DNA of 64,000 nucleotides from an uncultured Gemmatimonadaceae bacterium. Its GTDB lineage: Bacteria > Gemmatimonadota > Gemmatimonadetes > Gemmatimonadales > Gemmatimonadaceae. Under the pieces are notes generated by a model. That model searched no databases, was not told the DNA's origin, and worked only from the letters and a program-made list of their open reading frames with translations. Made by a program: the position numbers and the translations under genes. Below, one piece after another: positions 30,433 to 59,519 of the stretch (within the stretch, counting starts at the first letter, position 1; each line of letters begins with the position of its first letter). The stretch covers positions 672,001-736,000 of the forward strand of contig CAVXGK010000001.1 of NCBI GenBank assembly GCA_963761305.1, written 5' to 3'.

Positions 30433-30455
30433 GTAGCCAGCTTAGTGGGGGAAGC

Positions 30456-30491: not shown

Positions 30492-30501
30492 TTACCGGAC
30501 G

Positions 30502-34070: not shown

Positions 34071-34098
34071 CCTTCGGGCCTTCATTCTGGACCGACGT

Positions 34099-37546: not shown

Positions 37547-37559
37547 CGCGCAATCATCG

Positions 37560-38984
37560 ATGCCGGGGTCTCTTCCCACACCATTCTTCGAGTCCAACGC
37601 GGGCGACGGTTCGGCCGCGCAGCGGCGTCGCCTGCTGCTCGTCAGTTACCACTTTCCGCCGGACGACGCTGTGGGTGGGCTCCGGTGGGAGCAGATGTCG
37701 AGGTTTTTCGTCGCGGACGGCTGGGCAGTCGACGTGATCATGCGCGACGTCGCCAAACTGCAATCCCCCGACATGCGGCGCCTGCAGCAACTGTCGCCCG
37801 GCATCCGGATCTACTCAGCGACGGAGACCGACCCGTTGCTCGCGCGAATGGAGAGCGGGATGTTGCGCGTGGCGCGATCGCTGCGCGCGCGGCCGCGCGC
37901 CGCGTCGGCGCGTGCGGGCGTCGGTCTCGGGGAAAGGAGAAACGACGCGGCGCCCGTCGCCGGCGCACCAAGGCCAAAGAAAAACCGCTGGCTGGTGCAC
38001 GCGCACGCGGCCGTCGTTCGCGTCGAGCGCGAAAAGGCGTGGGGCCGCGGCGCAATCGCGATCGGTGTCGCGCTCGCCCGCGCCAATCGCTACGACGTCG
38101 TCGTCAGCTCGGGCCCGCCCCACATGGTTCACGACACCGCGAGAACGCTCGCGCTGCGGTGCGGCCTTCCGCTGGTGATGGATCTGCGCGACCCGTGGAG
38201 CGCGTTCGAGCTGGAGCACGGCGACTCGACGAGCCGGGTCTGGTTCGCGATGGCGCGCCACTACGAACGCCGCGCGGTGCGCGCCGCGCGCCTCGTCGCC
38301 ATGAACACGGATCTTGCTCGCGACGAGATGCGGCGCCTTCATCCCGATGCCGCCGCTCGCATCGTCACGGTCGGCAACGGGAGCGACGACGACGCAATTC
38401 CGTCCGTCGACGCGACCGATCGATTCGTCGTCCGATTCGCCGGCTCGATCTACCTGGACCGCGACCCGGGACCGTTCTTCCGAGCCGCGGCGACGGTCGC
38501 GCGACGCCTCAACTTGACGCCAGCGCAGTTCGGCGCCGAGTTCATCGGCCAGGTGCACATGTTCAACGGACAAAGCGTTCGCGAAATGGCCGAGCGCGAG
38601 GGATTCGGCGACTTCTTGACGCTCGAGGGCGCCAGACCGCGCGACGACGCGCTGCGATTCCTCGCCGCCGCGACGATGTTGCTCAACCTGCCCCAGGCCA
38701 CGCATCAGTGCGTCCCGGCGAAGATGTTCGAGTACGTGCGGTTCAACGCGTGGCTCCTGGCGCTGGCCGAGCCCCACAGCGCGACGGCGCAGATGCTTCG
38801 TGGAACGACGGCCGACGTCGTCGCGCCCGGCGACGTCGACGAGATGGCTAACGTGATCGAGCGACGGTATCTCCAGTTCGTCGCCGGTGAGCGACCGATG
38901 CCGATCGGGGGCGACGGCCGCTTCGATCGTCGGCGGCAAGCCGAGATTCTGTTGGAGCACCTCTCGACGATCGTGTCGCGATGA
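37560..38984 (+). CDS. Glycosyltransferase family 4-like
   Basis: SYHFPP..VGGLR, SSGPP, DLRDPW, PAKMFEY. Confidence 0.85.
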   Translation: MPGSLPTPFFESNAGDGSAAQRRRLLLVSYHFPPDDAVGGLRWEQMSRFFVADGWAVDVIMRDVAKLQSPDMRRLQQLSPGIRIYSATETDPLLARMESGMLRVARSLRARPRAASARAGVGLGERRNDAAPVAGAPRPKKNRWLVHAHAAVVRVEREKAWGRGAIAIGVALARANRYDVVVSSGPPHMVHDTARTLALRCGLPLVMDLRDPWSAFELEHGDSTSRVWFAMARHYERRAVRAARLVAMNTDLARDEMRRLHPDAAARIVTVGNGSDDDAIPSVDATDRFVVRFAGSIYLDRDPGPFFRAAATVARRLNLTPAQFGAEFIGQVHMFNGQSVREMAEREGFGDFLTLEGARPRDDALRFLAAATMLLNLPQATHQCVPAKMFEYVRFNAWLLALAEPHSATAQMLRGTTADVVAPGDVDEMANVIERRYLQFVAGERPMPIGGDGRFDRRRQAEILLEHLSTIVSR

Positions 38985-39898
38985 ATCGGCGCCTCCGGGC
39001 GCTCGCGGAAGGCGCCATTCTCGGGAGCGGCATCACGCATCTGACGCGGCGCGCGCATCGCTCCCGGGTGCTGGTGCTCGCGTATCACAACATCGTGCCG
39101 ACGGGCGAAGTGATCGACGGCGATACGAACCTTCACCTGCCGCAGCGCGAGTTCGCGCTGCATCTCGATACGATCCGCCGGACGCACGACGTCGTACCGC
39201 TCACGGCGGTCCTCGAACCGCCGGCCGTGCCGTCGCGTCCGCGCGTCGCCATCACGTTCGACGACGCGTACGCCGGAGCGCTCTCCGCGGGACTCGCGGA
39301 ACTCGCTCGTCGCCAGATGCCCTCGACGATTTTCGTCGCGCCGGGACTTCTCGGGCGCGTCACGTGGTGGGATGCGCTGGCAAAACCCGGCGGCTTCGGT
39401 CTGCCGGAATCCGTTCGCGAGCACGCGCTCGAGCAGTTGGCCGGACGAGGAGAAGGCGTCGTCGAGTGGGCCCGTTCGTCGGGGAACCTGCCGGGCGGTC
39501 TCGAGGCGCGTCCACGCATCGCGCGCCTGGAGGATCTTCAGCGCGCGGCTTCGGCGCCGGGGGTGACGTTCGGTTCGCACACGTGGTCGCACCCGAACCT
39601 TCGCGCGCTGGCGTCGAACGTCGTGCACGAAGAACTCCGGTCGTCGATCGAGTGGCTCAACGCGTGGTTCCCGACGCAGACCATTCCGTGGCTGAGTTAT
39701 CCGTATGGGATTTGGTCGCAGCCGGTTTGCGAAGCGGCGGCGGAGGCGGGTTACACCGCGGCGGTGCGCGTCGACGGCGGGTGGGTCACGCGCGACGGCG
39801 GCGCGTCGCCCTACACGATTCCGCGGCTCAACGTGCCGTTCGGAATGTCCGTCAACGGACTGTCGCTGCGCCTCGCCGGAATCGCGGCAAGCCGCTGA
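38981..39898 (+). CDS. Polysaccharide deacetylase (CE4)
   Basis: LAYH, ITFDDAY, GSHTWSH, SYPYG. Confidence 0.9.
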   Translation: MNRRLRALAEGAILGSGITHLTRRAHRSRVLVLAYHNIVPTGEVIDGDTNLHLPQREFALHLDTIRRTHDVVPLTAVLEPPAVPSRPRVAITFDDAYAGALSAGLAELARRQMPSTIFVAPGLLGRVTWWDALAKPGGFGLPESVREHALEQLAGRGEGVVEWARSSGNLPGGLEARPRIARLEDLQRAASAPGVTFGSHTWSHPNLRALASNVVHEELRSSIEWLNAWFPTQTIPWLSYPYGIWSQPVCEAAAEAGYTAAVRVDGGWVTRDGGASPYTIPRLNVPFGMSVNGLSLRLAGIAASR

Positions 39899-41135
39899 CG
39901 TCGCTGTCCGACGTTTCGAAAATCTCGAGCAAGCGCTTCTCGTCTTCGCGCCAGTTGTACTTCTCGGTCGCGGCCCGACGTCCGTTGTCGGCGAGCCGGC
40001 GCCGCATCGCGTGATCGCGTAGTAGAGCGACCGTCGCCGCGGCGAGCGATGCTTGATCACCCGGCTCGAACAACACGCCGGCCTGCGTTTCGTGCAACAC
40101 GCGTCGCATCGGCGGCAGGTCCGACGCGACGATCGGGAGTCCCGCGGCCATGTAGTCGAACAGCTTGTTGGCCAAGGTGATTTTCACGTGGCGGCCGGCG
40201 AGAAACGGCAGCAAGCCGATGTCGGACGTGGCGTAGAGCTCGGGCAGCGACGCATGCTCTCGCCAGCCGAGCAGCTCGACGCAGGATCCAAGGCCTCGCT
40301 CGGCGATCAATCGCTCGATGCCGCGACGCTCGTCGCCGTCGCCGACGACGATGAGGCGCGTCTTGGGAAACGCGGCGCGAATCGCTGGCAGCGCGCGCAC
40401 GGCGTCGGCCACGCCGCGATCCCACATGAGGATGCCGACGAACAGCAATACAAATTGGTCGAACTCCGGCCGATCGCGAGCGGGGTCCCGTCGCGCGGCG
40501 CGAATCGCCTCCAGGTCGTCGGGCGTGTTCCCAACCTGAATCACGCGATCGCGCGCGACGCCGAGGCCGAGACAGCGCTCGCGCGACTCGTCGGACACGA
40601 CGATGATCTTGTCGGCCCGCCGAAGCACGGCGCGTTCGACGCGGGCGGCGGCGCCGGGGCTTCTCACGATGCGGTCGCTCCACGACGCGCGGTTGAACTC
40701 GACGCGGTCGCGCAAAAACTCCGGATAGACCTCGGCCATGTCGTACGCGACCGGAATGCCGAGCCGCCGGCCGACGGCGAGCGCCGTCAGCGCCAGAGGC
40801 AGATCGCGCACGAGGATATGGTCGGCGCGACAATCGGTGGCGGCGCGCAGGATCGAAAAGAACCAGACCGGATTGACGGGGAACGGAAAGTTGATCAGGC
40901 GGTTGAGCGCGCGAACGCGGACGAATGGCAACCGCCGCACCGTCATCCAGGGCGCCTCTTCCACGCGGACCTGGCAACGGTCGTTTCGCGAGATGAGCAC
41001 GACTCGGTGGCCCGCTGAGGCCAGGCTGCGCGTCTCTTTGGCGACGCGCGTCGCTCGCCACGGCCAGTCGCCGTCGTAGACGTACAGAATCGTGTGTCGC
41101 TCGGACGTTGGTGCGCTCGATTCGGGCGGCGTCAC
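39852..41135 (-). CDS. Glycosyltransferase family 4 (paralog of 56664..57926)
   Basis: LYVYDGDWP, VRDLPLA, ANKLFDYMAAGLPIVASD; GTG overlaps the asnB stop. Confidence 0.9.
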   Translation of the reverse strand: MTPPESSAPTSERHTILYVYDGDWPWRATRVAKETRSLASAGHRVVLISRNDRCQVRVEEAPWMTVRRLPFVRVRALNRLINFPFPVNPVWFFSILRAATDCRADHILVRDLPLALTALAVGRRLGIPVAYDMAEVYPEFLRDRVEFNRASWSDRIVRSPGAAARVERAVLRRADKIIVVSDESRERCLGLGVARDRVIQVGNTPDDLEAIRAARRDPARDRPEFDQFVLLFVGILMWDRGVADAVRALPAIRAAFPKTRLIVVGDGDERRGIERLIAERGLGSCVELLGWREHASLPELYATSDIGLLPFLAGRHVKITLANKLFDYMAAGLPIVASDLPPMRRVLHETQAGVLFEPGDQASLAAATVALLRDHAMRRRLADNGRRAATEKYNWREDEKRLLEIFETSDSDVSGLPRFRRGAATVR

Positions 41136-43078
41136 TGCGCCCAACGCTCCGCCCAGGCCTGGAACATGAGGACGGCCCACAGGCCATGCGCCATTCCGCC
41201 GCGGCCGCGCTGCAGCTCCGTCCACGCGCGGCGAACGCGCGTGGCGTCGAGTCCGTTGTCGCGAAGGCGTTGTTCCGCGAGCAACTGCTCACCCCAATCG
41301 CGCAGACTGCCGCGCAGCCACGCCGCGATCGGCACCTCGAAACCCATCTTCGGCCGATCGACGAGCGACGCCGGCACGTATCGGTTCAGCACCTGACGCA
41401 GGATCCACTTGCCGCGGCCGTCGCGGATCTTCATGGCAAGCGGCAGGCGCCACGCAAATTCGACGACGCGGTGGTCGAGCAACGGCACGCGGACCTCGAG
41501 GCTCACCGCCATGCTCGCGCGGTCCGTCTTCGCGAGCAGATCGTCCGGCAGATACACGCCCTGATCGGCCAGCATCATCCGCTCGATGAGACTCCCGACG
41601 TCCGCGTCGAGCAGGTGCTCGAACTGGCCTGTCGGTTCGGTCTCGCCGCGGACGACGGTTTCCGGGTTCTGCCACGCCGACACCATCGAGCGATAGCGCG
41701 CGGTGGCGTTCGATGCGTCGAGCAGCGCGCCGAAGCTGTCGACCTTGTCTCCGGGCCTTCGAACGCGAAGACTTGCTGGAAGCATGGTTGCGACGCCGCC
41801 GGCGATGGTGTCCAGCGCCGACGGCGGCAGCGAGCGGACCGCGCCGGCGAGGAGGCGTCGCGCCGGGAGCGGCGCTCGGCCGACCAATCCGACGAGACGT
41901 TGTCCGCGGATATAGCGGTGATAGCCGCCGAACAGTTCGTCGCCGCCATCACCGGACAGCGCGACGGTGACCGCGCGGCGCGCGAGCTGGCACACCAGGA
42001 ACGTCGGGATCTGCGACGAGTCGGCGAACGGCTCGTCGAACATCGTCGGAAGGCGCGGCACGACGTCGAGCGCGTCGCGATCGGTGACGATCAGTTGCGT
42101 GTGCTTGGTGCCCAGGTGCTGGGCGACGCCGGCGGCGAACGGCGCCTCGTTGTAGTCGGGATGATCGAATCCGATCGAGAACGTTTCGGCCGGCCGCGTC
42201 GACGCCTTCTGCATCAGCGCCACGACGACCGACGAGTCGACGCCGCCGGACAACAACGCGCCGAGCGGCACGTCCGATTGCATCTGCGACGACACGGCGT
42301 CGGTGAGCAGTGCGTCGAGCTGGTCGATCGCCTCCGCGTCGGACCCGGTAAAGGATTCGGCGAGGCCGCGACGCGCGGCGTCCTCGGCAGACCAATACGG
42401 TTCGGGTGCCGGCAAGGCCGCGGCCGCGTCGGTCACGTGGAGGAGGTGACCCGGCGGAAGCTTGATGACGTGGCGAAAGATCGACCGCGGCGCGGGAACG
42501 TAGAGGAGGCGCAGGTAGGAGGTGAGGGCTTGGCGATCCAGCGTCGCGTCGAAGCTCGGGCCCGCGCGGAGCGCCTTGAGCTCCGAGCCGAACGACACCA
42601 CGCCGTCCTTCGCGTAGACATACAGCGGCTTGATGCCGAGCTGATCGCGCACCAGCGACAGCCGCTTGCGGTGCGCGTCCCAAACGGCGATCGCGAACAT
42701 GCCGACGAAGCGCCGAACCGCCACGTCGATGCCCCACCGTTCGAACGCGGCGAGAATGACCTCGCTGTCCGAATGGCCGCGCCACCGAACGCCCGACTGC
42801 TCCAATTCTTTGCTTAGGCCGCGATAATTATAAATCTCGCCGTTGAACACCATCGTGTAGCGGCCGGTGGCGGACCGCATCGGCTGGTGTCCAGCCTCGC
42901 TGAGGTCGAGGATGGCCAGCCGCCGGAACCCGAGGCCCACTCCGTCGGCGGCGTCGGACCAGATCCCGGCGTCGTCGGGGCCGCGATGCGTGATCGGCAC
43001 GATCATTTTGGCGAGCGTCGCGTCAAGATCGCCCGTCGTCGCGCCGCGGCGAACCAGGAGTCCAGCCAATCCGCACAT
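41132..43078 (-). CDS. asnB: Asparagine synthase-like glutamine-dependent amidotransferase
   Basis: N-terminal MCG, HRGPD, NGEIYN, GIKPLY, LSGGVDSS, SGDGGDELFGGY, DRASMAVSLEVRVP. Confidence 0.93.
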   Translation of the reverse strand: MCGLAGLLVRRGATTGDLDATLAKMIVPITHRGPDDAGIWSDAADGVGLGFRRLAILDLSEAGHQPMRSATGRYTMVFNGEIYNYRGLSKELEQSGVRWRGHSDSEVILAAFERWGIDVAVRRFVGMFAIAVWDAHRKRLSLVRDQLGIKPLYVYAKDGVVSFGSELKALRAGPSFDATLDRQALTSYLRLLYVPAPRSIFRHVIKLPPGHLLHVTDAAAALPAPEPYWSAEDAARRGLAESFTGSDAEAIDQLDALLTDAVSSQMQSDVPLGALLSGGVDSSVVVALMQKASTRPAETFSIGFDHPDYNEAPFAAGVAQHLGTKHTQLIVTDRDALDVVPRLPTMFDEPFADSSQIPTFLVCQLARRAVTVALSGDGGDELFGGYHRYIRGQRLVGLVGRAPLPARRLLAGAVRSLPPSALDTIAGGVATMLPASLRVRRPGDKVDSFGALLDASNATARYRSMVSAWQNPETVVRGETEPTGQFEHLLDADVGSLIERMMLADQGVYLPDDLLAKTDRASMAVSLEVRVPLLDHRVVEFAWRLPLAMKIRDGRGKWILRQVLNRYVPASLVDRPKMGFEVPIAAWLRGSLRDWGEQLLAEQRLRDNGLDATRVRRAWTELQRGRGGMAHGLWAVLMFQAWAERWAQ

Positions 43079-43758
43079 CAGTGCGCCCGCGAGAACAAGG
43101 TCGCCGATGGCCGCCAGTCCGCGACGTCCAGTTCGGGGAAGGGCGAGCCACTTGGTACGTCGACCGCCAACGCCGCGATGCAACCGTCGAACAGATGCAA
43201 GTTCTTGAGACAGTAGCGGCCGACGCGCCCTGCCTCCCGCGGCCTGACCGACACGCTCTTGAGCGGGACACTGAGCCCCTGGCCGAGCGCTTTGAGATAG
43301 GCCTCCTTCAGCGTCCAGTGGGCGTAGAACGAAGCAACCGAGTCCGACGAAGCGCCAACCCGCGCCAGTTCCTCAGGCGTGAGCGAGTCCGAGACGACAT
43401 CCGGCGATACGGCCACTATGCGCTCGAGATCGAGCCCCAAGGGCATCGTCCCTACGGCGATGGCCACGGCGCTTCCCGAATGGGTCACGCTGAAGTGCAG
43501 CGTCTCCATGCCACTCAGGCGCGGTTTTCCCCACCGCTCGTATTCGAATCGCAAGGCGTCGGGCGCCTCGCCCAGATCCCGCGCGAGAATGCAGCGCAGC
43601 GCGATCCGCGCGCAGACGAACGTCTGCCGTGCCGGCTCCGAGACGAATCGGGCCGCCCGCGCACGCTCGTCGTCGCTCAGCACCGCGAGAAGCGATTCCA
43701 GATCGAATACGCTGCAGTCGGCAATTCGCCAGACGGCGACGCGATCAATCGCCGGCAC
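43078..43758 (-). CDS. 4'-phosphopantetheinyl transferase (Sfp type)
   Basis: GKP, FSVTHS, LGLDLE, WTLKEAYLKALGQGL; overlaps both the NRPS end and the asnB start. Confidence 0.9.
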   Translation of the reverse strand: MPAIDRVAVWRIADCSVFDLESLLAVLSDDERARAARFVSEPARQTFVCARIALRCILARDLGEAPDALRFEYERWGKPRLSGMETLHFSVTHSGSAVAIAVGTMPLGLDLERIVAVSPDVVSDSLTPEELARVGASSDSVASFYAHWTLKEAYLKALGQGLSVPLKSVSVRPREAGRVGRYCLKNLHLFDGCIAALAVDVPSGSPFPELDVADWRPSATLFSRAH

Positions 43759-46700
43759 GAGACTCGGTGGCCGGCTCGGATTGAACCGCGTCGATCGCGG
43801 TACGAATGGCCTCCGCCAAACCGAGCGAATATGGAAGTTCGAGCACCGACTCATGGTTGCCGTCGCAGACGTAGACGTCACGACGAGCCGCGACACGTTC
43901 CCAGGCGAGTCTCGGGTCGAGGTCGTCAGCGAGTCCTCGCAGCGATGGATCGTCCGACACGAAGAGCGCGATCGAGCCAGGGTATTTCCCCGCTCGGTAC
44001 CGCTGGAGCACCTCAGCCGTCGCGTCGAGGACGACGCGGAGGTCGCCGGCAGTATCCTTGAAACCGTCGCGCTTCGCAACCTGGACCGCGTTCGCGACCT
44101 GGTCCCGTTCGATCCGATTGGCGCGGGTGGTCTGTCGGCGGTCCTGGAAGAATTGGACGATGCCCTTGCCGTTCGTTCGCGCTTCGCGCAGTTGGTATCG
44201 GAGCCGCTGAGCCTTGAATCGTATCGTTTCGAGGCGCCCTGAGGGGACACCGGGCAGCAGGCAGTTGACCATACCGAGGAGCGCCACCGTTTCGCGTTCC
44301 CGCAGGAGTTGCTGCGCCATCTCGTAGGCGATGAGGCCTCCCGCACAATACCCGACGAAATAGTACGGCCCGTGCGGCTGATGCCGGCGGATGAGCGCGA
44401 GATACTGCGCCGCGCGCTCTTCGACCCGTTCGATGTCCGCCACCGAATCTGGAAAGGCCGAACCAAGGCCGTAGACCGGAAGATCGTCGCCCAGCCCGGC
44501 GACGATGTGTTTCAGCGAGAACATTCCGAGCGCGGCCCCGCCCGGAATCCAGTACAGCGGCGGCCGCGACCCGGCGGCCCGAATCGTCACGAGAGTGTGA
44601 CGCCCCTTCACGTGAGTGTCGTCCTCGATGTGCTTGGCGAGCTGCGCCACGGTGGGCGCTTCGAACAGAGTGTTCAACGGAATCCGTTTGCCAAACACTT
44701 GGGCAGCACGTGACATCAGGCGAACGGCGAGCATCGAGTGACCGCCGAGGTCCCAAAAACTGTCCTCCACGCTGACCCTGGGAATCTCGAAGACTTCGGC
44801 CCACACCTCGGCGAGCTGCTGCTCCACGTAGGTTCGCGCCGCCACGACCACACTCACCGTCGGCACGGCGGCGCCAGTCGGGGCCGGGAGGGCGCGACGG
44901 TCGACCTTGCCGCTTGGCGTCGTCGGTAGCCGATCGAGCTGCACGAACGCCACGGGGATCATGTAATCGGGCAAGCTCACCTTGAGCGCCGCCCGCAGGG
45001 TCGATGGGTCCGCGGCGCCCGCATCGGCGATCACATATGCCACCAAGCGCTTGTCGCCGGGCGTATCCTCCCGCGCGATCACCACCGCCGCACGAATCCC
45101 CGCCTGCGCCGCCAATACACTCTCGATCTCCCCCAACTCGATCCGAAACCCGCGAATCTTCACCTGATGATCCGTGCGGCCCAGGCATTCGATCACGCCG
45201 GCGCGTGAGTAGCGCGCCAAATCCCCCGTCCGGTACAGCCGTTCCCCGGGGAGAAATGGGTCGGCGACGAAACGCTCTGCGGTCAACTCCGGCTGGCCGC
45301 GATAGCCACGGGCCACTCCGGCGCCGCCGATGTAGAGCTCTCCAGTCGCTCCCGGCGGCACGGGACACCGATGCGCGTCGAGAATGTAGGTGGTGGTGTT
45401 CGCCGGCGGCCGTCCGATGTAGATGACCTGATCCCCTTGGCGAATGCGATGAAACGCCGAGTAGATCGTCGTTTCGGTCGGCCCGTAGCCGTTCCACGCC
45501 TCGCTCGACGCCGCGGCGAGGGCCGCACCCAACTCCACCGAAATAGCTTCCCCGCCGCAGATGGTTTTGACCCGGCCATCCCCGCGCCACCCGGTCTCGA
45601 ACAGCATCTTGAACGTCACCGGTGTCGCTTGCACGATCGTCGGCTCGGTCCCCTCGATCAGCGCGCGCAACGCTTCGGGATTGAGCGCCGTTTCGCGAGG
45701 AGCGAGGATGATCCGCGCCCCGGTCGCCAGCGGCATCAGCGTTTCAACTCCAGCGATGTCGAATGATACGGTCGTCACCGCGAGCACTGAATCGCGTGCC
45801 GTCATCCCCGGCACCGCGCGCATCGACCCGAGCAAATTCAGAAAGCCGCCCCGCGTGACCTCCACGCCCTTTGGCCGCCCCGTCGAGCCCGACGTGTACA
45901 ACACGTACGCGAGGTGCTGGGGCCCCACCGCGACCACCGGATTCTCCGCCCGTGCCGCCGCGTCGTGCCCGATCTCCACCGGCACCACGGCCGCGGCGGT
46001 GTCGCGAAACAGCCCCTCGTGCGACGCATTCGTCACGACCGCGCGCAATCCCGCATCCCGCGCCATGTAGACGAGCCGCTCCCGCGGAAAGCCGGGGTCC
46101 AGCGGAACGTATGCACCCCCCGCTTTCACGACGGCGACCAAGGCGATCAGGAGATCAGGCGTGCGCTCCAGACACACACCGACCGGCTCATCGGGGCCGA
46201 CTCCGCACCGGATCAGTTCGTGGGCCAGACGATTCGCCCGCGCGTTCATCTCCGCGTAGGTGACCTCCTCGTCGCCAAACGTGATCGCTGTCCGATTCGG
46301 CCCCGCTTCGACCTGCGCCTCGATCAACTCCGCCAGTGACCGGTCAAGGGGATGGACCGCGTCCGTCTGATTCCAGTCGACCAATACGCGCTGTCGCTCC
46401 TGCGCGGTCAGCATCGGCACCTGCCAGACCGCCGCTCCGGTATCCGACGCCCACGCCGTGAGCATCGTCGTCAGCTGCCCCAGTATTTGGTCCGCCGATT
46501 CGCGGTCGAACAGTTGCGTGTCGTAGTCGAGCTTGAGCGCAAGCGCGTCGCCGCCGTACGCCATCAGCGCGAGCGGGTACCCCGGCTGTTCGCGCAGAGT
46601 GCAAACGCGCCGCTCCCACGCCCCGCCTCGCGCGCGTAGCGCCTCTCCGAATTCGTCGTGCTCGAACATCAGAAACGAGTCGAACAACGATGCCGACGCA

Positions 46701-47767
46701 GGCAAGTCACTCACCTGCTTGATGTCGACCAGGGGCATGTGCTCGTAGCCGCGGAGAGCGACCCATTGTTGGCGTACGCGCTGGAGCCATTCGCGCACGG
46801 GCAACTCGGCGTCGATCGCGATCCGAATCGGGACGGTGGCGAGGAACAGCCCGACCATCGCGTCAGCGTCGGGAATCGTCCCGCGCCGAGTCGTTTTCGT
46901 CACGCCGAACACGACGTCGGATTCGCCGCTATGTCTCGCCAGCAGCAGCGCCCAGGCGGCAATTACGAGAGAATTGAGCGATAGTTGCTCTCGCGTGGCC
47001 AGGGCGCGCAGCTCCTCGGTCACCGCACCGGAAAGGCGCACACGCGCTTCGCCAAAGTGTTCGCTCGTGCCATCGACGTGATCGCCGCGAGCGACGTGCG
47101 GCAGCGGCGTCGTCGCGGTGAATCCGGACAACGCGTCCCGCCAGAAGGCGCGCGCTGCCGACGCGTCTTGCGCCGCTACCCATTCGGCATATTCGCGATA
47201 CGGACGTCTGGCCGCCGCGTCGCCGTTCTCGTTCGCCTCGGCCCCGTCATAGACGGAGAAGACGCGCTCGAGGATCGTCGCGAACGATCGTCCATCGATC
47301 AGGATGTGATGAAACGTCCAGATCATTCGGAAGTCGGCCGCTCCGAGTTGAAGCAGCGACACCCGCATGGCCGGCGCCGTCGCGAGGTCGAACCCCTCGC
47401 GGCGGTCGTCGCGCAAGAACTCCTCGATCCACGCGTCGCGGTCCGACGCGGTCCGCTGGCGCAGATCGTGGGCACGGAACGGCAACGTCACCGTGTCGGC
47501 GCTGTATTGCGCCGGCGACTTCCGATTCTCCCAGACGAACGCCGTCCGCAATGTCGGAAAGTCACGCAGAGCGCGTTGCCAACTTGCCTCGAGGCGCGCC
47601 GCGTCGATCGGCTCGCGCAAATCGGCAACGATCTGTTCGACGTCGGTGCCGGAATGCCGGCCCCGAAGCCAATGAAAGAGCATTCCCGACTGAATCGGAG
47701 TCAGCGGATACAGCGCGGGCCGCGCCGCGCTGGACTCAGGGGGGCGAAGGTCTTCGACCGCCGTCAC
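43745..47767 (-). CDS. Single-module NRPS C-A-T-TE (Gly/small-residue-like A domain, Cys-type TE)
   Basis: HHILIDG; YTSGSTGRPKG; YGPTE; YRTGD; LGGHS; GYCAGG; GNH; specificity code read by eye as DIVQIGGIYK. Confidence 0.95.
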   Translation of the reverse strand: MTAVEDLRPPESSAARPALYPLTPIQSGMLFHWLRGRHSGTDVEQIVADLREPIDAARLEASWQRALRDFPTLRTAFVWENRKSPAQYSADTVTLPFRAHDLRQRTASDRDAWIEEFLRDDRREGFDLATAPAMRVSLLQLGAADFRMIWTFHHILIDGRSFATILERVFSVYDGAEANENGDAAARRPYREYAEWVAAQDASAARAFWRDALSGFTATTPLPHVARGDHVDGTSEHFGEARVRLSGAVTEELRALATREQLSLNSLVIAAWALLLARHSGESDVVFGVTKTTRRGTIPDADAMVGLFLATVPIRIAIDAELPVREWLQRVRQQWVALRGYEHMPLVDIKQVSDLPASASLFDSFLMFEHDEFGEALRARGGAWERRVCTLREQPGYPLALMAYGGDALALKLDYDTQLFDRESADQILGQLTTMLTAWASDTGAAVWQVPMLTAQERQRVLVDWNQTDAVHPLDRSLAELIEAQVEAGPNRTAITFGDEEVTYAEMNARANRLAHELIRCGVGPDEPVGVCLERTPDLLIALVAVVKAGGAYVPLDPGFPRERLVYMARDAGLRAVVTNASHEGLFRDTAAAVVPVEIGHDAAARAENPVVAVGPQHLAYVLYTSGSTGRPKGVEVTRGGFLNLLGSMRAVPGMTARDSVLAVTTVSFDIAGVETLMPLATGARIILAPRETALNPEALRALIEGTEPTIVQATPVTFKMLFETGWRGDGRVKTICGGEAISVELGAALAAASSEAWNGYGPTETTIYSAFHRIRQGDQVIYIGRPPANTTTYILDAHRCPVPPGATGELYIGGAGVARGYRGQPELTAERFVADPFLPGERLYRTGDLARYSRAGVIECLGRTDHQVKIRGFRIELGEIESVLAAQAGIRAAVVIAREDTPGDKRLVAYVIADAGAADPSTLRAALKVSLPDYMIPVAFVQLDRLPTTPSGKVDRRALPAPTGAAVPTVSVVVAARTYVEQQLAEVWAEVFEIPRVSVEDSFWDLGGHSMLAVRLMSRAAQVFGKRIPLNTLFEAPTVAQLAKHIEDDTHVKGRHTLVTIRAAGSRPPLYWIPGGAALGMFSLKHIVAGLGDDLPVYGLGSAFPDSVADIERVEERAAQYLALIRRHQPHGPYYFVGYCAGGLIAYEMAQQLLRERETVALLGMVNCLLPGVPSGRLETIRFKAQRLRYQLREARTNGKGIVQFFQDRRQTTRANRIERDQVANAVQVAKRDGFKDTAGDLRVVLDATAEVLQRYRAGKYPGSIALFVSDDPSLRGLADDLDPRLAWERVAARRDVYVCDGNHESVLELPYSLGLAEAIRTAIDAVQSEPATESRAGD

Positions 47768-48060
47768 GAAGCAACACTCATCTCATCGTCCGCGGGATTC
47801 GCACGCACGGCATCCGATTTCGAGGGTGACCGGCGAATGCGCCAAGTCAGGCGCGTAGGCGTCCGCCGATCAGGCATCTGACCGACAAGTAGGTGGCCCC
47901 GAGGTGACGACGAAATGTCGCACTCGCTCCCGGTTTTCCGAGTCGGCCTCGAACAGGCGGACCATCAAGATTTCTTACCTGGGGAACATAGGCCCGAACG
48001 CACCGACCGGGGCGCCGCCCGGTGTTCAGATAACGCCCACTCGATTGGTCTCGACGCATG

Positions 48061-51000
48061 CTACGGTCGAGACTCGGACAGCTCGGCCCATGCCGACTCG
48101 AGCGCGCTACGAAGCCGCGATGCCAAGCTCAGCGCGTACGGAAGGCCAAGGACCGACTCATGGTTCCCCTCGCACACGTAGACGTCGCGGCGAGTCGCCA
48201 CTCGATCCCACGCGAGGCGCGGATCGAGGTTGGCGCCAACGCCACGCAATGACGGATCGTCGGACACGAAGAGACTCACCGGCCCGGGGTACTGGCGAAC
48301 CTGATACCGTTCGATCGCCCGGTCGGTGAGCTCGAGCACCACGCGATATTGATGCTCGCCGTTGTCCTTGAAGCCCTCCCGCCTCACACGTTCAGTGGCG
48401 CGCGAAACTCGCTCCTGCTCGGCGCGGTGCGCGTTCATCCTCTTCTGCCGGTCGCGGAAATAGCCCACGAAGCCGATGCCTTGCTGCTTGGCCTCCTGAA
48501 GCTGATGCCGGAGCCGCTGGACCTTGAATCGAATTTTCTCGACACGGCCTGATGGCACGCCCGGGAGAGAGCAGTTGATCATCCCCAGCAGCCCGATTTG
48601 CTCGTTCTCGCGTAACAGCAGTTGCGCCATCTCGAACGCGATCACGCCGCCAGCGCAGTAGCCGACGAAGAAGTACGGGCCATGCGGCTGAACCCGCCGG
48701 ATGAGCGAGAGGTATTCCGCGGCGCGCTCTTCGACGCGCTCGACGTCCTCCACCGTATTGGGAAATGCCGATCCGAGCCCGTACACCGGGACGTCGTCGC
48801 CGAGCGCCGGAACGAGATGCTTCAGCGAGAACATTCCGAGCGCCGCGCCACCCGGAATCCAATACAGCGGCGGCCTCGCGCCGGTGACGCGAGCGGGTAC
48901 GAGGGTATGACGACCGTGAACTCTGCTGTCGTCTTCGAGATGTTTCGCGAGCTGCTCTACAGTCGGCGCTTCGAAGAGCGTGTTCAGCGGAATGCGCTTG
49001 CCGAACGCTTGCGCGATCCTCGCCATCAGTCTCACGGCGAGCATCGAGTGTCCGCCCAGATCCCAAAAACTGTCCGTGACGCTGATCGGCGACATCTTGA
49101 AGACGCTCTCCCAAACGTCGGCCATCTGCCGCTCCAAATACGTGCGAGGACCCACGATCGTGCGCTTCACCGTGGCCTCGGCGCCGGTCGGTGCGGGGAG
49201 TGCGCGACGGTCGATCTTGCCGCTCGGCGTCGTGGGGAGGCGTTCGAGTTGCACGAACGCCGACGGCACCATGTACTCGGGCAGACGGGATTTCAACGCC
49301 GCGCGGAGCGCGGAGGCGTCGAGGATGTCGGCCTCGGCGACGACGTAGGCGACCAAGCGCTTGTCACCCGGTGTGTCTTCACGCGCGACGACCACGGCCT
49401 CGCGGACGCCGGCTTGCGCCGCGAGCACGTTCTCGATCTCGCCCAGCTCGATGCGGAAGCCGCGGATCTTGACCTGGTCGTCGTTGCGGCCCAGGTACTC
49501 GATGCTGCCGTCGGCCAGGAAACGGCCGGTGTCGCCCGTCTTGTACATCCTGCCGCCCGCGTGAAACGGGTCGTCGACGAAGCGCTCGGCAGTGAGTTCC
49601 GGCCGGTTCAGGTAGCCGCGGGCCACGCCCGCCCCCCCCACAAACAGCTCGCCTTCCACACCGACGGGCACGGGCTCGCGGTGCGAGTCGAGGATGTAGA
49701 TCTGCAGGTCCGGGATGCGCTTGCCGATCGGACTCGCGCCCGCGCGCAGCGCGTCCACCGGCTGCAGCGGGCGGTAAGTCACGTGCACCGTCGTCTCGGT
49801 GATTCCGTACATGTTCACCAGCTGTGCGGACGCGTTCCGTTCGCGCTCGTACCAGGGCCTCAACGTCGCCATCTCGAGCGCCTCGCCGCCGAAGATCACG
49901 TAACGCAGCGCGTGGCGCTGCTGCTCGCTCTCCTCTTGGGCCGCCACGAGCTGACGGAACGCGCTTGGCGTCTGATTGAGCACCGTCACGCCTTCGTCGC
50001 ACAGCAGCTGGTAGAACTCCTGCGGCGCGCGGGCGGTCTGCTGCGGCACCACGACCAGCCGTCCACCGTAGGCGAACGCGCCCCAGATTTCCCAAACTGA
50101 AAAGTCGAACGCGTATGAGTGAAATAGCGTCCACACATCCTCGGGCCCGAAGTGATACCAGGCTTCGGTGGCGGTCAGCAGACGCGTCACGTTCGCGTGT
50201 TCGACCATCACGCCTTTGGGCGTGCCCGTCGAGCCCGATGTGTAGATGATGTAGGCGAGATTGCGGGACGTACCTCCGTCGCGCGGCGGGTTCGTCGTCG
50301 CTTCCTCGGCCCACGCGGACTCGTCGGCCAGGTCGAGGACCGGAACCGACTCCGTCGCCAGCGACGCTCCGGCTCCGTGCACCAGGACCATCGCCGGCGC
50401 GCTGTCGCGCAGCATGAAGGCCAGCCGCTCGGGCGGATACGCCGGATCCAGCGGTACGTACGCACCGCCGGCCTTGAGCACGGCCAGGAGGCCAACCACC
50501 ATCTCCACGCTGCGCTCCACCGAAACACCGACGAGAACGTCGGGTCCTATGCCGCGACGTCGCAGGTGGTGCGCGAGGCGGTTCGCGCGCTGGTTGAGCT
50601 GCGCGTACGTGAGCGATGTGCCTTCGTGGACCAGCGCCACCGCGTCACCACGCAGGCTCGCTCGTGCCTCGAACAGCTCGTGGATACACGCCGACTGGGG
50701 ATACTGCACCGGTGTGTCGTTCCACTCGTACAACACGCGCCGGCGCTCCGGCTCCGTGAGCATCGGAACCTGCCAGACGGCCCGGTCGGCGTTCGACGCC
50801 CATCCCCCGAGGATCGTCGTCAGGTGCCCGAGGAGACGATGGACGGCTTGGCGATCGAATTGGCGCGTGTCGTAGTCGAGCTTGAGGGTGAGCGCATCGC
50901 CGTCGTAGGCCGTGAGCGCGAGTGGATACCCCGGTTGCCCCGCCGTCGCGACCGACCGCCGCTCCCATGCGCCACCCTTCGATCGCAGCCGCCGGCCGAG

Positions 51001-52101
51001 CTCGTATCGCTCGAGCATGACGAGCGAATCAAACAGCGACGCGGCCGCGGGCACCGGGCTTCCCTGTTTGATGTCGACGAGCGGCACGTGCTCGTGACCG
51101 CGCAACACGACCCACTCGTCGCGCACGCGACGCAACCATTCGACGACCGACAGTTCCTGATCCACGGCAACCCGAATAGGAATGGTGGCGAGGAAGAGCC
51201 CGACCATCTCGTTCGCGCCGGGGATCGTGCGGCCTCGGGTGCTCTCGGCGACGCCGAACACGACCTCCCGCTCGCCGTTGTGCCGCGCCAACAAGAGCGC
51301 CCAGGCGGCGACGACCAGCGATTCGACCGAGAGCTGCTGTCGCGCCGCGAGTGCGCGGAGGTCGTCCGTTGCCGATTCCGACAAACCGACGCGCGCTTCG
51401 TCGAACGGGTCGCTCGCCGGTTCGACCGGTTCGGCGTGCGGAAGCGGCGTCGTGGCGGTGAATCCGGCCAGCTTGGCGCGCCAGAAATCGCGAGCGACTT
51501 CTCCGTTCTGCGCGGCGATCCAATCGACGTACTCTCGATACGGCGTCTCTTTCGCCGGCCCGGTGCCGGTCGCCGAGCCGGAATCGTACGCCGCGAAGAC
51601 GCGATCGAGAATGATCTCGCAGGATCTGGTGTCGAACAGGATGTGGTGAAACGTCCAGACCATCTGGAATTCCGTTTCGCCGAGCTGGAAGAGCGACACG
51701 CGCGTGGCGGGCGCGGCGGCGAGATTGAAGCCCTTGCGGCGGTCGTCGCGGATGAATTCCCGGATCTGGGCGACGCGATCACCGTCGGCCAGGTGACGAA
51801 GGTCGTGAACCTCGAAGGGCAGGCGCGTGCCGTCGTCGATGTACTGCGCCGGCGACGCGAGGCCTTCCCAGGCGAACGCGGTGCGCAACGCCGCGAACTC
51901 CGAGACGACCCGCCGCCAGCTCGCCTCGAGTCGCGCCGGATCGATCGTCTCGTGGAGTTCGGCGACGACCTGCTCGATGTCGGTTCCCGAATGGCGGTCG
52001 CGGAGCCAATGAAAGAGCATCCCCTCCTGAATCGGAGAGAGGGGACACGAGTCGCCGTGCGTGCCGGTCGACGCGAACCGGAAACGGTCCGTCGCCGTCA
52101 C
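48061..52101 (-). CDS. Single-module NRPS C-A-T-TE (Thr-type A domain, Cys-type TE)
   Basis: [18 protein letters not shown]; code DFWNIGMVHK; LGGHS; GYCAGG; GTG start overlaps the capA stop. Confidence 0.95.
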
Positions 52102-53186
52102 TCGGCACCTCCCAACGCCGCGCGAACCTTGTTGCGCACGGTTCGTCCGACGAGTTGGCCGAGGGCCGCAGGGGGCACGCGCCAGATGCGCATCAGGGCG
52201 TAGGGATACACCGCGCGTCGTTGGTCGCGCCACGTTCGCTGGATCTCGCGCTCGTACTCGTCGGCCGAGAGGGCGCGAATTTGTTCGGCGCGGACGAGAC
52301 CTTCCTCGTGGGCGGAAACCGCAGGCTGATAATTCGTATCCAGGCGCGTGCTGCGAACGGTGGCTGCGACGACGGCGCCATCCGAGATCTCGGCGCACAA
52401 CAAGAGACCCCGGCGAAACGGCTCGTACCACACCATGTCGCCGACGCAGTTGCCGAGGCTGTACGCGATCACGCCGTCTCGATAGCGCTCCACGGGTCGA
52501 GCGACGTGCGGATGATGTCCGAGCACGAGCGTTGCGCCGGCGTCGATCACCGATCGCGCAAACGTCGTCTCGTCGACGGATGGAACGGGGACGAACTCCT
52601 CGCCCCAATGCAGCGACACGATCACCACGTCCGCGTCGCGCCGCAGTCTCGAAACGTCGGCGCGAATCTCGTCCGGCGATCCTTCCGCATACGGAGGTTC
52701 GTCCGCGCTGTACTGTCGCGGTCTCAGGCAATACGCGAGAATGCCGACGTGCACTCCTTTGACGACCAGAGTCGCGGGCTCGCTGGCCCACGGCCGCGTG
52801 CCGCGGAGGCCGCACGGCGTGATGCCGGCCGCGCGCAACGACGCGACCGAGGCATCAAACGCGTCGACGCCGTGTTGGGATGCGTGATTGTTGGCGACGT
52901 TCAGGACCGAGAATCCCGCCGCGCGCAGCATCTGCGCAAACCGCGGATCTCCGCGCAGTTGTCGCGACGCCCAACTCGAGGTCGCCGAACTACGCGACGA
53001 GAGCGGCACTTCGAGATTCCCGAAGACGACGTCGCCCTGTTGCAGCGACGGTCGAAGTCCGGCGAGCACGCCATCGAGATCGGAGCCGGAATAGCGACTC
53101 CCAAACCCGAATCCGACCGATGTCGGAGAGTCCCCGAGCTGCAGATCGCCGGCGGCGACGACGCTAAGCGATGTGGCCAGACTCAT
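52098..53186 (-). CDS. CapA/PGA_cap family metallophosphoesterase-fold protein
   Basis: AGD, GNLE, VANNH, SLHWGEE, GHHPHV, YSLGN. Confidence 0.9.
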   Translation of the reverse strand: MSLATSLSVVAAGDLQLGDSPTSVGFGFGSRYSGSDLDGVLAGLRPSLQQGDVVFGNLEVPLSSRSSATSSWASRQLRGDPRFAQMLRAAGFSVLNVANNHASQHGVDAFDASVASLRAAGITPCGLRGTRPWASEPATLVVKGVHVGILAYCLRPRQYSADEPPYAEGSPDEIRADVSRLRRDADVVIVSLHWGEEFVPVPSVDETTFARSVIDAGATLVLGHHPHVARPVERYRDGVIAYSLGNCVGDMVWYEPFRRGLLLCAEISDGAVVAATVRSTRLDTNYQPAVSAHEEGLVRAEQIRALSADEYEREIQRTWRDQRRAVYPYALMRIWRVPPAALGQLVGRTVRNKVRAALGGAE

Positions 53187-53213
53187 CGGACGAGTGCCCC
53201 CCAAAGGCACGTC

Positions 53214-55072
53214 TCACTGGCGTATTGACCCACCAAGGTAATGCTCGGCCCATACGAACACATTACCCAAGAGCCAAAGCGCTTCCCCGCGATCGCGGGT
53301 CCCCCGAACGTGTTCGTCGACCACTCGCTGGAGCGTGGGCCGGTCGAACAGATCCGCGGCCGGGTGGTCCGGATCGCGGAGTTTCGTGAGGAGCGGAGCG
53401 AAGACAGGGGAACGGAACCAAGCGTCGAGCGGAATGCCGAACCCCGACTTCGCACCGCGCGTGATGGCCGGACTGAGATATCGCTCCGCCACCCGCTTTA
53501 CGACTCGTTTGTTTTCTCGGCCCGAGAGCTTGTACCGCCCTGCGACACTCACGCCCCACTCGACGAGCGGGATGTCGAGGAACGGAACGCGGCCCTCGAG
53601 GCTCGTCGCCATCGACATTCGGTCGATGCGGTCAAGCGCGCAGCACAGGTAAGTCAGCAACTCGTATCGAGACAACGTGGCCACGGGTCCGGCGTCCGAT
53701 CGCGCCAGCTCGAGCAGGGAGCGACGCTCGTCGAACGCGGCCCCGATGGGGTTGGCTGAAAGGCGCGCGGCGAGATCCGGGCTCACATACGCGGAGTTGA
53801 GCAGGATCGCGTCATCCAGCCCCTGGCGGAGACTGCTCGCCAGCTTTGCCGGACGGTGCCCGGGCCCGGCCGCGATGGCTCCGGCGAGCGCGGTGCGAAT
53901 CACGCCGGGGAGTGGCTCGGCGACACCGCGCCAGCGCGCGATGTGGTAGCGCGGATAGCCGCAAAACAATTCGTCGGCGCCTTCGCCTGTGAGTATGACC
54001 GTCACGTACTGGCGCGCGAATCGACTCAACTGGTACAGGGGAATCGAGTTCGGATGGCTCAACGGTTCGTCATGATGGCGTACAAGGAAAGGCAACAGCC
54101 CCAGGAACTCGCTCGGTTCGGCGAACGACAGTATGATGGTCGGATTTGATGCGCGCTGCCGTGTCGGCCGCAGGCCCACGCTCGTCCCATGCCGGATCGT
54201 CGAATCCGACGGCGAAGGTCTGAAGCGTGTGTCGCGAGGCAGATGCCGCGTACGCGCTCACGAGCCCGGAGTCGACACCGCCGCTACAAAACGTGCCGAG
54301 CGGCACGTCGCTCATGAGCTGAGACTCGACCGCGCCACGAAGCAGGGGGTCGAGCGCCTCGGCCGCCTCGTCCAGGGATCCCGTCGACTGTTCGTCGGCT
54401 GGCGGGGCCCAATAGCGGGTGGGTGTGACGCGTCCGTGTTCGAAGACGGCGGTATGCGCTGGTGCGAGTCGCCGTATGCCGTCGAAGAACGTATTCGTTC
54501 CGGCGACATATCTGAAACACGAGGTATTCCTGCAGGCTCTCGCGACGCACACCGACGGGCACGCCGGCCGCGAGAATGGCCTTGATCTCGGAACCGAAAT
54601 ACAGCGTCCCGTCGCGAACGCAATAGAACAGCGGCTTGATGCCGAGGTGATCGCGCGCGAGCAGAACGCGGCCCCGCCGCACGTCGTGAAGCGCGAACGC
54701 GAACATCCCGTTGAAGCGACGGCACGAAGCCGTCACCCCACTCCTCGTAGGCGTGAACGAGGACCTCGGTGTCGCAGTGGGTCCGAAAGCAATGGCCCCG
54801 GGCTGACGAGATCGTCGTTGATCCGCGGGAAGTTATAGATCTCCCCGTTGTAGGTGACCCAGACCGTTCCGTCCTCGTTCGACAGCGGCTGCGCTCCACC
54901 GGCGAGGTCGATGATGCTCAGTCGCCGATGCGCGAGCGCGACGCCGCCCTCGACGTGCAGCCCCTCACCGTCGGGACCGCGATGTTCGAATGGCGTCTCG
55001 CATTCGGCGCACGATCGCGAGATCGATCGGCCGCGCCGAGTCGGAATGTGCCAGGCCGCAGATGCCGCACAT
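53214..55072 (-). pseudogene. asnB: Second AsnB-type amidotransferase with about five frameshifts (pseudogene or sequence error)
   Basis: MCGICG at 55072; HRGPD, NGEIYN, DTEV, FNGMFAFA, GIKPL, SGGVDSG, TGEGADELFCGY are spread over successive frames. Confidence 0.8.
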
Positions 55073-55115
55073 TAGCGGGCCTGCTTCTGGCCGTCGGCCG
55101 AGAAGGTCGTTCGTC

Positions 55116-56486
55116 TCATGACGTCGTCTCGTTGACGACCATGCGGAGCTTCCCGCGCTGCGTGCGGGGCATTGCGGTCACGCGCACGACGTCGACGCGC
55201 ATCGTCGGACCGAGCCGGTTGCCGAGCTCCCGGAGAAGGGTCGCGCGTTCGACGTCGGAGACTTCGCTCTCGGCGACATACTCGAGCCGCACGTGGTCGG
55301 CCGCGTCCTGGACGATGCGAGATTCCTGAAACGACGACACCGCTTTGAAGATCGGATCGAGTCGCCCGACTCGCCGGCCATCGGGCGTGATCACCACGTC
55401 GTCGGAGCGACCGACCAGAGTCGCGATGATGGGATAGGCGCGGCCGCATGCGCATCCCTCGTCGCCGAGGACCGCGAGATCTCCCGTTCGGTAGCGGATC
55501 AGCGGCATCACCGGATTGATGAAGCCGGTCGCCGTGATCTCCCCGATCTCGCCAGCGGCCGCCGGCGCGCCGTCGCGAAGCACCTCGACGATGCCGAACT
55601 CCGAGTTGACGTGATACGACCCGCGTTCGCATTGGGAAATGAACGCCGCCATCTCACCTCCTCCGTAGTGGTCGAACACGGGCGCACGAAACGCTTCCAC
55701 GAAGAGTCGACGCACCTCGACGGACAGGGTCTCGGACGACGTGATGACGGCGACGGGGCGAATGCTATCGATCCCGTGAGCGACGACGTGGCGCGCGATT
55801 GGTTCGAGGCTCGACGGGTAGCTGTCGATCAGGGCAGGTTTCCACCGCGACAGGTGCGCAACGTAGTCGGGAATCGTCGCGGCGCCGATGTGATAGGAGG
55901 AATACAAGACGGCGTTGCCGGCGGCGTTGTGCCGCCAGTAGGGCGGCCGCGTTTGATTCGGCCGCACGATCGTGCGTCCGGCGAAGGTCGCGACGCGCGC
56001 GCCGTCGGCCACCCCGGCCCATTCTCGCAAGCGCGCGAAAAAAGCGTAGTTGCGTTGGAGCGTCGGTCGATCGCAATAGACCGTGAGCGGCGTGCCGGTG
56101 GTACCTCCCGTGTGAACCTCGAGCAGCTTTCCTTTCCTGGACGTGTCGGACACAAAATCGGCGAGATGCCGCCGTACCTCGTCCTTGCTCACGGTGGGAA
56201 GTTCGCGGAGCTGCTCCAGATAACGCAGCGCCGATTTTCCCCCCGCGCGGAGCGGTTTGTACCACGGCACTGCCTCGGCGGCCGACTCGAGGGCCGCGTT
56301 GGCTCGGCCGAGCTGTAGTCTTTGAAGATCCGGCGCGGGCAGCCACTGCGTCTGTCGGAGCTCCGCCAGGGCAGCCTGGTGGACTCCCCCGTAACGCCGA
56401 CCACGCAGGGACAGTCCGTAGGCCGACAGGAGCGCGTTCTGCATCCAGACCGGAAGCCCAAAGTAGACTTGAGTCTGGAAACTCAC
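55116..56486 (-). CDS. Phenylacetate-CoA ligase-like / CapK-like adenylate-forming enzyme
   Basis: HTGGTTGTP, TSSE, DHYG..E, MPLIRYRTGD, GRSDD. Confidence 0.88.
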   Translation of the reverse strand: MSFQTQVYFGLPVWMQNALLSAYGLSLRGRRYGGVHQAALAELRQTQWLPAPDLQRLQLGRANAALESAAEAVPWYKPLRAGGKSALRYLEQLRELPTVSKDEVRRHLADFVSDTSRKGKLLEVHTGGTTGTPLTVYCDRPTLQRNYAFFARLREWAGVADGARVATFAGRTIVRPNQTRPPYWRHNAAGNAVLYSSYHIGAATIPDYVAHLSRWKPALIDSYPSSLEPIARHVVAHGIDSIRPVAVITSSETLSVEVRRLFVEAFRAPVFDHYGGGEMAAFISQCERGSYHVNSEFGIVEVLRDGAPAAAGEIGEITATGFINPVMPLIRYRTGDLAVLGDEGCACGRAYPIIATLVGRSDDVVITPDGRRVGRLDPIFKAVSSFQESRIVQDAADHVRLEYVAESEVSDVERATLLRELGNRLGPTMRVDVVRVTAMPRTQRGKLRMVVNETTS

Positions 56487-59499: not shown

Positions 59500-59519
59500 C
59501 GCGGGTTTCGACGCCAAGC

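Follow-up and report, generated by a model that had tools for sequence, protein, structure and literature searches.

The window analyzed here is a 64,000-nucleotide stretch (G000:C1:672001-736000) from the genome of an uncultured soil Gemmatimonadaceae bacterium, which is 5.2 Mb in 2 contigs and 93% complete. Its minus strand carries a block of eight genes, capK/PaaK-like - asnB - capA - NRPS1 - NRPS2 - PPTase - asnB - GT4, in which two nonribosomal peptide synthetases (NRPSs), each composed of condensation (C), adenylation (A), thiolation (T), and thioesterase (TE) domains, stand within a polysaccharide locus. We propose that these NRPSs may decorate a surface glycan. The features of the block are as follows:

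55116..56486, minus strand, CapK/PaaK-like ANL ligase, a candidate uronate:amine ligase that would act independently of the NRPS
53214..55072, minus strand, asnB-type amidotransferase 1 (asnB1), broken by about five +1 insertions in the assembly
52098..53186, minus strand, PGA_cap (CapA/MslH-like) metallo-protein, cytoplasmic (Pfam, NCBIfam)
48061..52101, minus strand, NRPS1, C-A-T-TE, 1346 aa (Pfam domains, motifs)
47768..48060, gap of 293 nt between NRPS1 and NRPS2, bridged by a short-read contig
43745..47767, minus strand, NRPS2, C-A-T-TE, 1340 aa, the copy with orthologues in other genera
43078..43758, minus strand, Sfp/HetI-type phosphopantetheinyl transferase (PPTase; Pfam, NCBIfam)
41132..43078, minus strand, asnB-type amidotransferase 2, intact, with an N-terminal Cys (Pfam, NCBIfam)
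39852..41135, minus strand, GT4 glycosyltransferase (Pfam)

The co-oriented gene order and the four start/stop overlaps described in the initial annotation of this DNA are borne out by the coordinates and junction sequences: capA and NRPS1 overlap by 4 nt (GTGA), NRPS2 and the PPTase gene by 14 nt, the PPTase gene and asnB at TGATG, and asnB and the GT4 gene at GTGA. The 293-nt gap between the NRPS genes showed no terminator-like or sigma70-like site in a promoter/terminator scan whose results were not above chance, and a short-read contig that derives independently from a different data set spans the tandem (47399-48235). GC content is 62-69% throughout the window, with no step where the NRPSs sit. 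The asnB genes had been counted as part of the block; the second is intact and the first has no open frame in the assembly, with +1 insertions near 54989, 54800, 54713, 54511, and 54123 relative to three relatives. A local assembly error is the likely cause, because seven of the nine related loci checked have asnB1 as an intact frame that begins at the start codon (613-631 aa), because the insertion at 54989 is absent from one low-depth short-read contig (the other four being too thinly covered), and because indels also cluster at 59520-63543, where three genes are frameshifted, one for a GT4, one for a GT2, and a third asnB-like gene without the N-terminal Cys.

NRPS1 and NRPS2 share the same domain layout and are 57% identical overall. 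Both retain their catalytic motifs (HHxxxD, GGHS, GxCxG, and the TE His), with the C-domain motif reading HHILFDT in NRPS1 and HHILIDG in NRPS2, and the PPTase gene adjoins them. Five carrier matches were found in the genome, two of which are the T domains of NRPS1 and NRPS2, the only carriers of the region; the related genome G582 has three in all. No MbtH was found in the genome at its 93% completeness, which extends to the whole genome an absence previously noted for the window. Against the PDB, the C domain scores best with McyB, PvdL, TycB, BacC, and SrfA-C, whose C domains we take to be of the D-donor type. This C-domain class is defined in PMC10510592. NCBIfam DltA models pick up nothing but the A domains, and these below cut-off. 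The identity between the two NRPSs varies sharply by domain, at 63% for C, 74% for the C-terminal part of A, 76% for T, and 66% for TE versus 31% for the A core, which argues for a duplication followed by an A-core swap. Consistent with such an origin, a FastTree TE tree groups NRPS1 and NRPS2 with the single NRPS of a locus from the same genus (L054; support 1.00). The loading specificities proposed in the initial annotation are upheld by the A-domain codes. That of NRPS1, DFWNIGMVHK, is the threonine code of DhbF2 (PMC4169593), and NRPS1 is predicted to load Thr. That of NRPS2, read by hand as approximately DIVQIGGIYK, is a variant of the glycine code DILQVGLIWK (PMC4169593), and its orthologues follow the pattern DI(L/A/V)Q-x-(G/T)-x-x-(W/Y)K; because the code departs from the glycine code, also among orthologues, the predicted Gly-like substrate is uncertain. 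A catechol siderophore reading (DhbF, Gly-Thr), which would call for a DHB-AMP ligase and an aryl carrier, was rejected: TIGR02275 gives no hit above cut-off in the genome, and the NRPSs are two separate TE-ended modules, not one dimodular line.

The TE domains are of the cysteine type. In NRPS1 the nucleophile is Cys1149 (GYCAGG), paired with His1314, and Asn occupies the site of the usual catalytic Asp. Cys and His are invariant in 16/16 close TE sequences and in 14/14 from stand-alone T-TE proteins, in alignment counts that cover 78 of 79 rows (one left out) and in which the alignment of some distant rows does not extend to His1314. The usual Asp is replaced by Asn in 14 of the 16 close TEs. 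Asp1293 is invariant in all 30, and both Asp1282 and Asp1293 follow an aligned strand, making them candidate relocated acids of a possible triad that would combine Cys with an acid in a new position. There is precedent for such a triad in ObiF1 and SulM, which use Cys with an Asp relocated to the loop after strand beta-7, whereas AB3403 has Cys with the usual Asp; the cysteine thioesterases ObiF1 and SulM perform non-hydrolytic chemistry (PMC11298585). The TE of Pks13 ranks with the top PDB hits (E 1e-10), and a search of the ESM Atlas returned generic thioesterase clusters only. A basic TE lid was considered as possible evidence for polyanion binding and set aside, because distant TEs are equally basic.

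Comparison of related loci shows that the NRPS genes occupy an optional position. L054 and L055 have the order capA-NRPS-PPTase-asnB-GT4 seen in the window. Within the same genus, the position between capA and asnB is taken in G337 by a gene for a 330-aa glycosyltransferase-like protein (PF13524) and is empty in G131, where capA adjoins asnB. The position thus behaves as a swappable tailoring slot, occupied by NRPS and PPTase, by a glycosyltransferase-like gene, or by nothing. The NRPS-free versions of the locus in G337 (L154:5292-11368) and G131 (L155-L156) also contain an FkbH-ACP-MBOAT-TylF-glyoxalase-GDSL module, another carrier-based tailoring cassette. These comparisons do not support the single eight-gene cassette of the initial annotation: capK-asnB-capA-asnB-GT4 exists without an NRPS in G131 and G337, and an NRPS exists without capA or capK within 20 kb in L075. 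Family-wide counts also diverge, with capK-like genes in 24 of 251 family genomes, a capA orthologue in 6, and a close C domain (at least 53% identity) in 3. Because slot contents vary and these counts differ, the actual unit is the NRPS with or without the PPTase, and capK-asnB-capA is a separate module. The four NRPS-less capK loci that we examined are also glycan loci. The capK-like protein of the window matches PaaK-type ligases, and its gene likewise sits in a glycan locus. The CapA protein belongs to a PGA_cap subfamily that is rare (6/251), and in the other five genomes its locus-mates are asnB and a capK-like gene. It resembles the epimerase MslH (NCBIfam E 4e-22, below cut-off; PDB E 1e-17) and keeps six of eight key residues (Asp11, Glu44, Asn87, His88, Asp91, His259, His261, and His295), the changes being Asp91 to Gln and His261 to Gly. 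The D91A variant of MslH is inactive (PMC10406935), and Gln holds this position in 10/10 capA orthologues. Since MslH needs Asp91, an epimerase activity of CapA that would invert a C-terminal amino acid on the glycan is only a possibility.

Relatives of the TE are sparsely distributed. TE matches occur in 33 of 401 phylum genomes, with only G207 prominent (43%). TE profile matches occur in 18 of 401 family genomes, of which five form the close clade: G000, G582, G207, G569, and G635 (frameshifted). A plasmid search returned generic NRPSs only, all below 60% identity. Contig scans yielded 18 loci from genomes and 80 from metagenomes (the best 80 of 454); once duplicates were merged, 13 loci of the close clade remained beyond the window. 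Core polysaccharide genes (wza, wzc, priming glycosyltransferase, wzy, wzx, or wecB) are present in 7/13 (L054, L055, L057, L058, L067, L072, and L076). Tailoring genes only are present in another 3/13, namely AT3 acyltransferases and asnB in L074, GT4 and a deacetylase in L075, and a GT4-like fragment found by BLAST only in L056. When the count is limited to loci of 10 kb or more, core genes accompany 6/8 close TEs, 8/13 T-TE proteins, and 4/31 other, distant thioesterases, as counted by hand over 97 of 98 loci with home-built hidden Markov models (HMMs); the difference between 6/8 and 4/31 is a contrast and not a test, because the HMMs were made from the loci counted and related loci are not independent. 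The initial proposal that NRPS homologues keep company with polysaccharide genes came through this synteny check for close homologues, across several genera and several gene orders. The NRPS gene occupies at least five distinct sites: the slot between capA and asnB, directly after Wzx (L058, L067), between capA and wzy (L057), between a deacetylase gene and GT4 (L075), and after an AT3 acyltransferase gene (L076). A PPTase accompanies it in L054, L055, and L073/L074. In L058 (10983-11906, G207), the gene directly downstream of the NRPS encodes a 307-aa protein with no Pfam match, a candidate partner transferase. Each close-clade locus has a single NRPS with a Gly-like code. The Thr NRPS is a recent duplicate with a swapped A core, and it turned up solely in four near-identical sequences that cluster at 90%, one of them that of G000.

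The TE family extends beyond these loci. In a midpoint-rooted FastTree tree of 104 sequences, the close clade (0.97) adjoins TEs that end polyketide synthase (PKS)-NRPS lines (G311, G272, and G707; ~37% identity), and further out lies a clade of stand-alone T-TE proteins, of which L061 comes from an Acidoferrales genome and the others from metagenome contigs. In the eight T-TE loci with core genes counted above, the T-TE genes adjoin wzx, wzy, wza, or wzc. Close-clade proteins from databases place different loading domains before the TE, including F-A-T-TE (P0009), FkbH-T-C-A-T-TE (P0006), a longer line (P0002), and an A domain with a Val-like code (P0005). Because F-A-T, FkbH-T-C-A-T, and a Val-like code precede TEs of the same clade, the arrangement points to variable N-acyl-amino-acid cargo. 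L079 (9692-16710) and L084 (5325-12404) each carry two T-TE genes around a class IV aminotransferase gene, followed by genes for a thiamine pyrophosphate enzyme, a free AMP-binding ligase, a homoserine succinyltransferase, and a Cys/Met pyridoxal phosphate enzyme; these sets adjoin wzx/asnB or wza, and L084 has three T domains ahead of the TE. Other NRPS-glycan pairings were also encountered. Multi-module NRPSs with a TauD dioxygenase and GT4 stand beside Wzm/Wzt-type ABC genes in L162-L164 (G077 C3, G377 C95), a second, different pairing in the family. Two NRPS/PKS genes lie within an exosortase-type exopolysaccharide (EPS) locus in L052, L165, and L166 (G215 C7), together with an A-ACP-MBOAT set, and in L051 (G019 C31) a Wzx flippase gene and one for a PKD/galactose-oxidase-like protein adjoin two NRPS genes and an 83-aa open reading frame.

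We propose that each NRPS is an autonomous C-A-T-TE module, added to the locus along with its PPTase, that transfers an N-acyl-aminoacyl unit through the Cys TE to a glycan intermediate, an account that we give an even chance of being right. The A domain would load one amino acid onto T, Thr in NRPS1 and a Gly-like residue in NRPS2. The C domain would then cap the amine with a small acyl group, as suggested by relatives in which F or FkbH-T precedes the same TE. Acyl-CoA or acyl-AcpP is the likeliest donor, because no dedicated upstream carrier is encoded. D-glyceryl-ACP was rejected as a general donor, as neither FkbH nor its ACP is present in G000 and the two occur near an NRPS only in L075. 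The cysteine TE would then act as a transacylase and move this unit onto an amine or hydroxyl of a glycan intermediate that would be cytoplasmic and probably lipid-linked, and on which free amines could arise via the two deacetylases or DegT. The directly observed foundations of this model are the domain content, the catalytic motifs, the A-core swap, the optional presence in a fixed slot, and the repeated location in glycan loci, whereas the sugar acceptor is suggested by genomic context. The decoration idea of the initial annotation thus survives in its loading codes and in the company that close homologues keep with glycan genes, and not in its single cassette; transfer to a sugar is, as before, deduced from context. 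More tentatively, and with somewhat more doubt than belief, we speculate that the cysteine-TE clade comprises glycan transacylases fused to interchangeable loading modules (C-A-T, F-A-T, FkbH-T-C-A-T, or T alone). In Gemmatimonadota and Acidobacteriota these would equip surface glycans with programmable side chains of N-acyl amino acids, A-domain swaps altering the decoration as glycosyltransferase swaps alter serotype.

Several observations weigh against TE-mediated transfer to a glycan. The C domain ranks with D-donor C domains, yet the locus encodes no D-amino-acyl donor carrier; 3/13 close loci (L059/L069, L077, and L081) have no glycan gene in flanks of ~1-6 kb; the nearest outgroup TEs (G311, G272, and G707) are without glycan genes in the spans examined; 5/13 T-TE loci of at least 10 kb lack a glycan gene, with a P450 neighbor in the four that are annotated; and the context counts carry the dependence noted above. 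It is conceivable, if unlikely, that the NRPSs make a diffusible small molecule that is unattached to the glycan and shares its regulation with the matrix, an N-acyl-glycine-like compound or, in the case of NRPS1, perhaps an N-acyl-threonine beta-lactone. The Cys TEs with a relocated acid in ObiF1 and SulM form beta-lactone or beta-lactam rings (PMC11298585), Acinetobacter AB3403 also combines C-A-T-TE with a Cys TE, the sister TEs of the close clade end PKS-NRPS lines, and a major facilitator superfamily gene lies at the far end of the extended glycan region. The Thr code of NRPS1 would fit the beta-hydroxy or beta-amino substrates of the ObiF1/SulM type, but no such substrate is predicted for NRPS2 or its orthologues, and the conserved Gly-like orthologue would have no beta-hydroxyl to offer. 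Moreover, the NRPS gene is found at many internal positions of glycan loci, often translationally coupled, and neither an exporter nor a tailoring gene accompanies it across loci.

Decoration could also proceed without transfer by the TE. CapK might activate a uronate that the C domain condenses with the aminoacyl-S-T, the TE acting as a hydrolase, or a free NRPS product might be ligated by CapK, ATP-grasp, or AsnB. All five NRPS-bearing family genomes also have a capA orthologue and a capK-like gene (on different contigs in G569) though capA is rare, a sugar acid might be an apt donor for a C domain of the D-donor type, and VpsH in Vibrio cholerae offers a precedent for glycine addition to a lipid-linked uronic acid (PMC13463779). 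That addition is, however, tied to VpsH alone in this paper, capK-like genes occur in the family mostly without a close NRPS, and capK-asnB-capA persists without an NRPS in G131 and G337 just as the L075 NRPS does without capK or capA; we consider this route improbable. Taken together, glycan decoration by the TE route or by the CapK/C-domain route holds about two thirds of our confidence. Very little of it goes to the NRPS and PPTase genes being an unlinked passenger in a recombination-prone glycan locus, or to decay of the locus. The patchy distribution (5/401 family genomes), the standing of glycan loci as hot spots of gene gain, and the several frameshifted genes of the assembly would fit a passenger, but all catalytic motifs are kept in both NRPSs, the tandem is retained in near-identical strains, and the pairing with glycan genes is seen again under other gene orders and in a second clade of TEs. 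The state of asnB1 in its relatives and in the short-read contig, moreover, fits assembly error rather than decay.

Carrier-dependent aminoacylation of envelope polymers is known from DltABCD and AlmEFG. The proposed pathway would resemble these systems in ATP activation of an amino acid, in the use of a phosphopantetheinyl carrier, and in transfer to an envelope glycan. Unlike them, the NRPSs of the window fuse A and T with C and TE, and their cargo is likely N-acylated. Neither a Dlt/Alm-type MBOAT nor a lipid A (AlmG-like) acyltransferase was found among the window genes scanned, and an MBOAT query from G337 finds none in the genome. VpsH, a CapK-like protein of V. cholerae, is needed for glycine on the lipid-linked uronic acid GulNAcA, a step dispensable for polymer growth (PMC13463779). 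It shares with the window a CapK/PaaK-like ligase in a polysaccharide locus, a comparison made at the level of the protein family, and would be a good model for the capK-like gene here; no NRPS is named in this step in that paper, and it is a precedent for that gene and not for the NRPSs. ObiF1 and AB3403 share the C-A-T-TE layout with the NRPSs of the window, ObiF1, SulM, and AB3403 share the Cys nucleophile, and ObiF1 and SulM share the loss of the usual Asp site; these enzymes differ in having upstream carriers or modules and in releasing small molecules (PMC11298585, PMC10510592). The Gln-Cys-Asn motif of SulM is absent from the window TE, which has Tyr-Cys-Ala, and AB3403 retains the usual Asp. 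The Pks13 TE parallels the activity proposed here: as an assembly-line TE, it transfers mycolate to the sugar trehalose for use in the cell envelope (PMC12933137), but it is a serine-type TE of Actinobacteria with polyketide cargo and a free disaccharide acceptor. A peptide-decorated amino sugar on a surface glycan is found in the peptidylamido-glycan of Clostridioides difficile type B flagellin (PMC5207246), whose locus differs in its FemAB, ATP-grasp, and aminotransferase genes. An NRPS had been expected in that locus; as described it has none, and the term "NRPS" appears nowhere in the text (PMC5207246). Our literature search, which did not reach most subscription papers, returned no NRPS module described as decorating a polysaccharide. 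Each chemical step has precedent, and the combination appears undescribed.

N-acyl-aminoacyl sugar substituents are known from polysaccharide structures, and the enzymes behind them are often unassigned. If the proposal is correct, it would provide an enzymatic route to such substituents and extend full NRPS modules beyond small-molecule synthesis to the tailoring of bacterial surface glycans, and some orphan monomodular NRPS "clusters" in soil genomes would make cell-surface polymers. One genus offers a natural series for comparison, with no insert, a glycosyltransferase insert, one NRPS, and two NRPSs.

Polysaccharide genes on both sides of the block, as first annotated, are recovered by Pfam and NCBIfam:

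25938..39898, left flank, plus strand except the low-molecular-weight (LMW) phosphatase and GT2 genes (minus strand), wza-like, wzc, priming glycosyltransferase, LMW phosphatase, GT2, PF04932 polymerase/ligase, ATP-grasp, GT4, wecB, GT4-like, deacetylase (Pfam and NCBIfam)
34099-35295, left flank, ATP-grasp ligase, within the locus
56664..63543, right flank, GT4, formyltransferase, and deacetylase (plus strand), then frameshifted GT4, GT2, and third asnB-like genes (minus strand)

Wza, Wzc, the priming transferase, and the PF04932 polymerase/ligase are all present in the locus (Pfam, NCBIfam). A Wzx flippase was not found in G000 by PF13440 or PF01943, nor in 3/3 same-genus genomes; Wzx adjoins the NRPS in G207 and G635. 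The label "Wzy-type" given to the locus at first is therefore not established for this genome, and a Wzm/Wzt exporter is encoded just outside the window in a glycan region that extends ~17 kb further, to ~753 kb. This extension (L172:2103-18410; G000 C1 738-754 kb) encodes Ig-domain (Big_2) proteins, Wzm/Wzt, RmlD-like, PF02719, DegT, and FemAB/GNAT proteins, and a DUF3473 deacetylase. Since PF04932 is present and Wzx was not found, the locus may make a protein-linked glycan. Candidates for the glycan are thus a capsule or EPS and a chain attached to the Ig-domain surface proteins of this region. The genome also carries an exosortase gene at a separate site. Upstream of the locus, genes for a histidine kinase, a sigma54 response regulator, and a receiver/GGDEF-like protein (window 15947-20078) are conserved in G131, G337, and G582 and may form a regulator.

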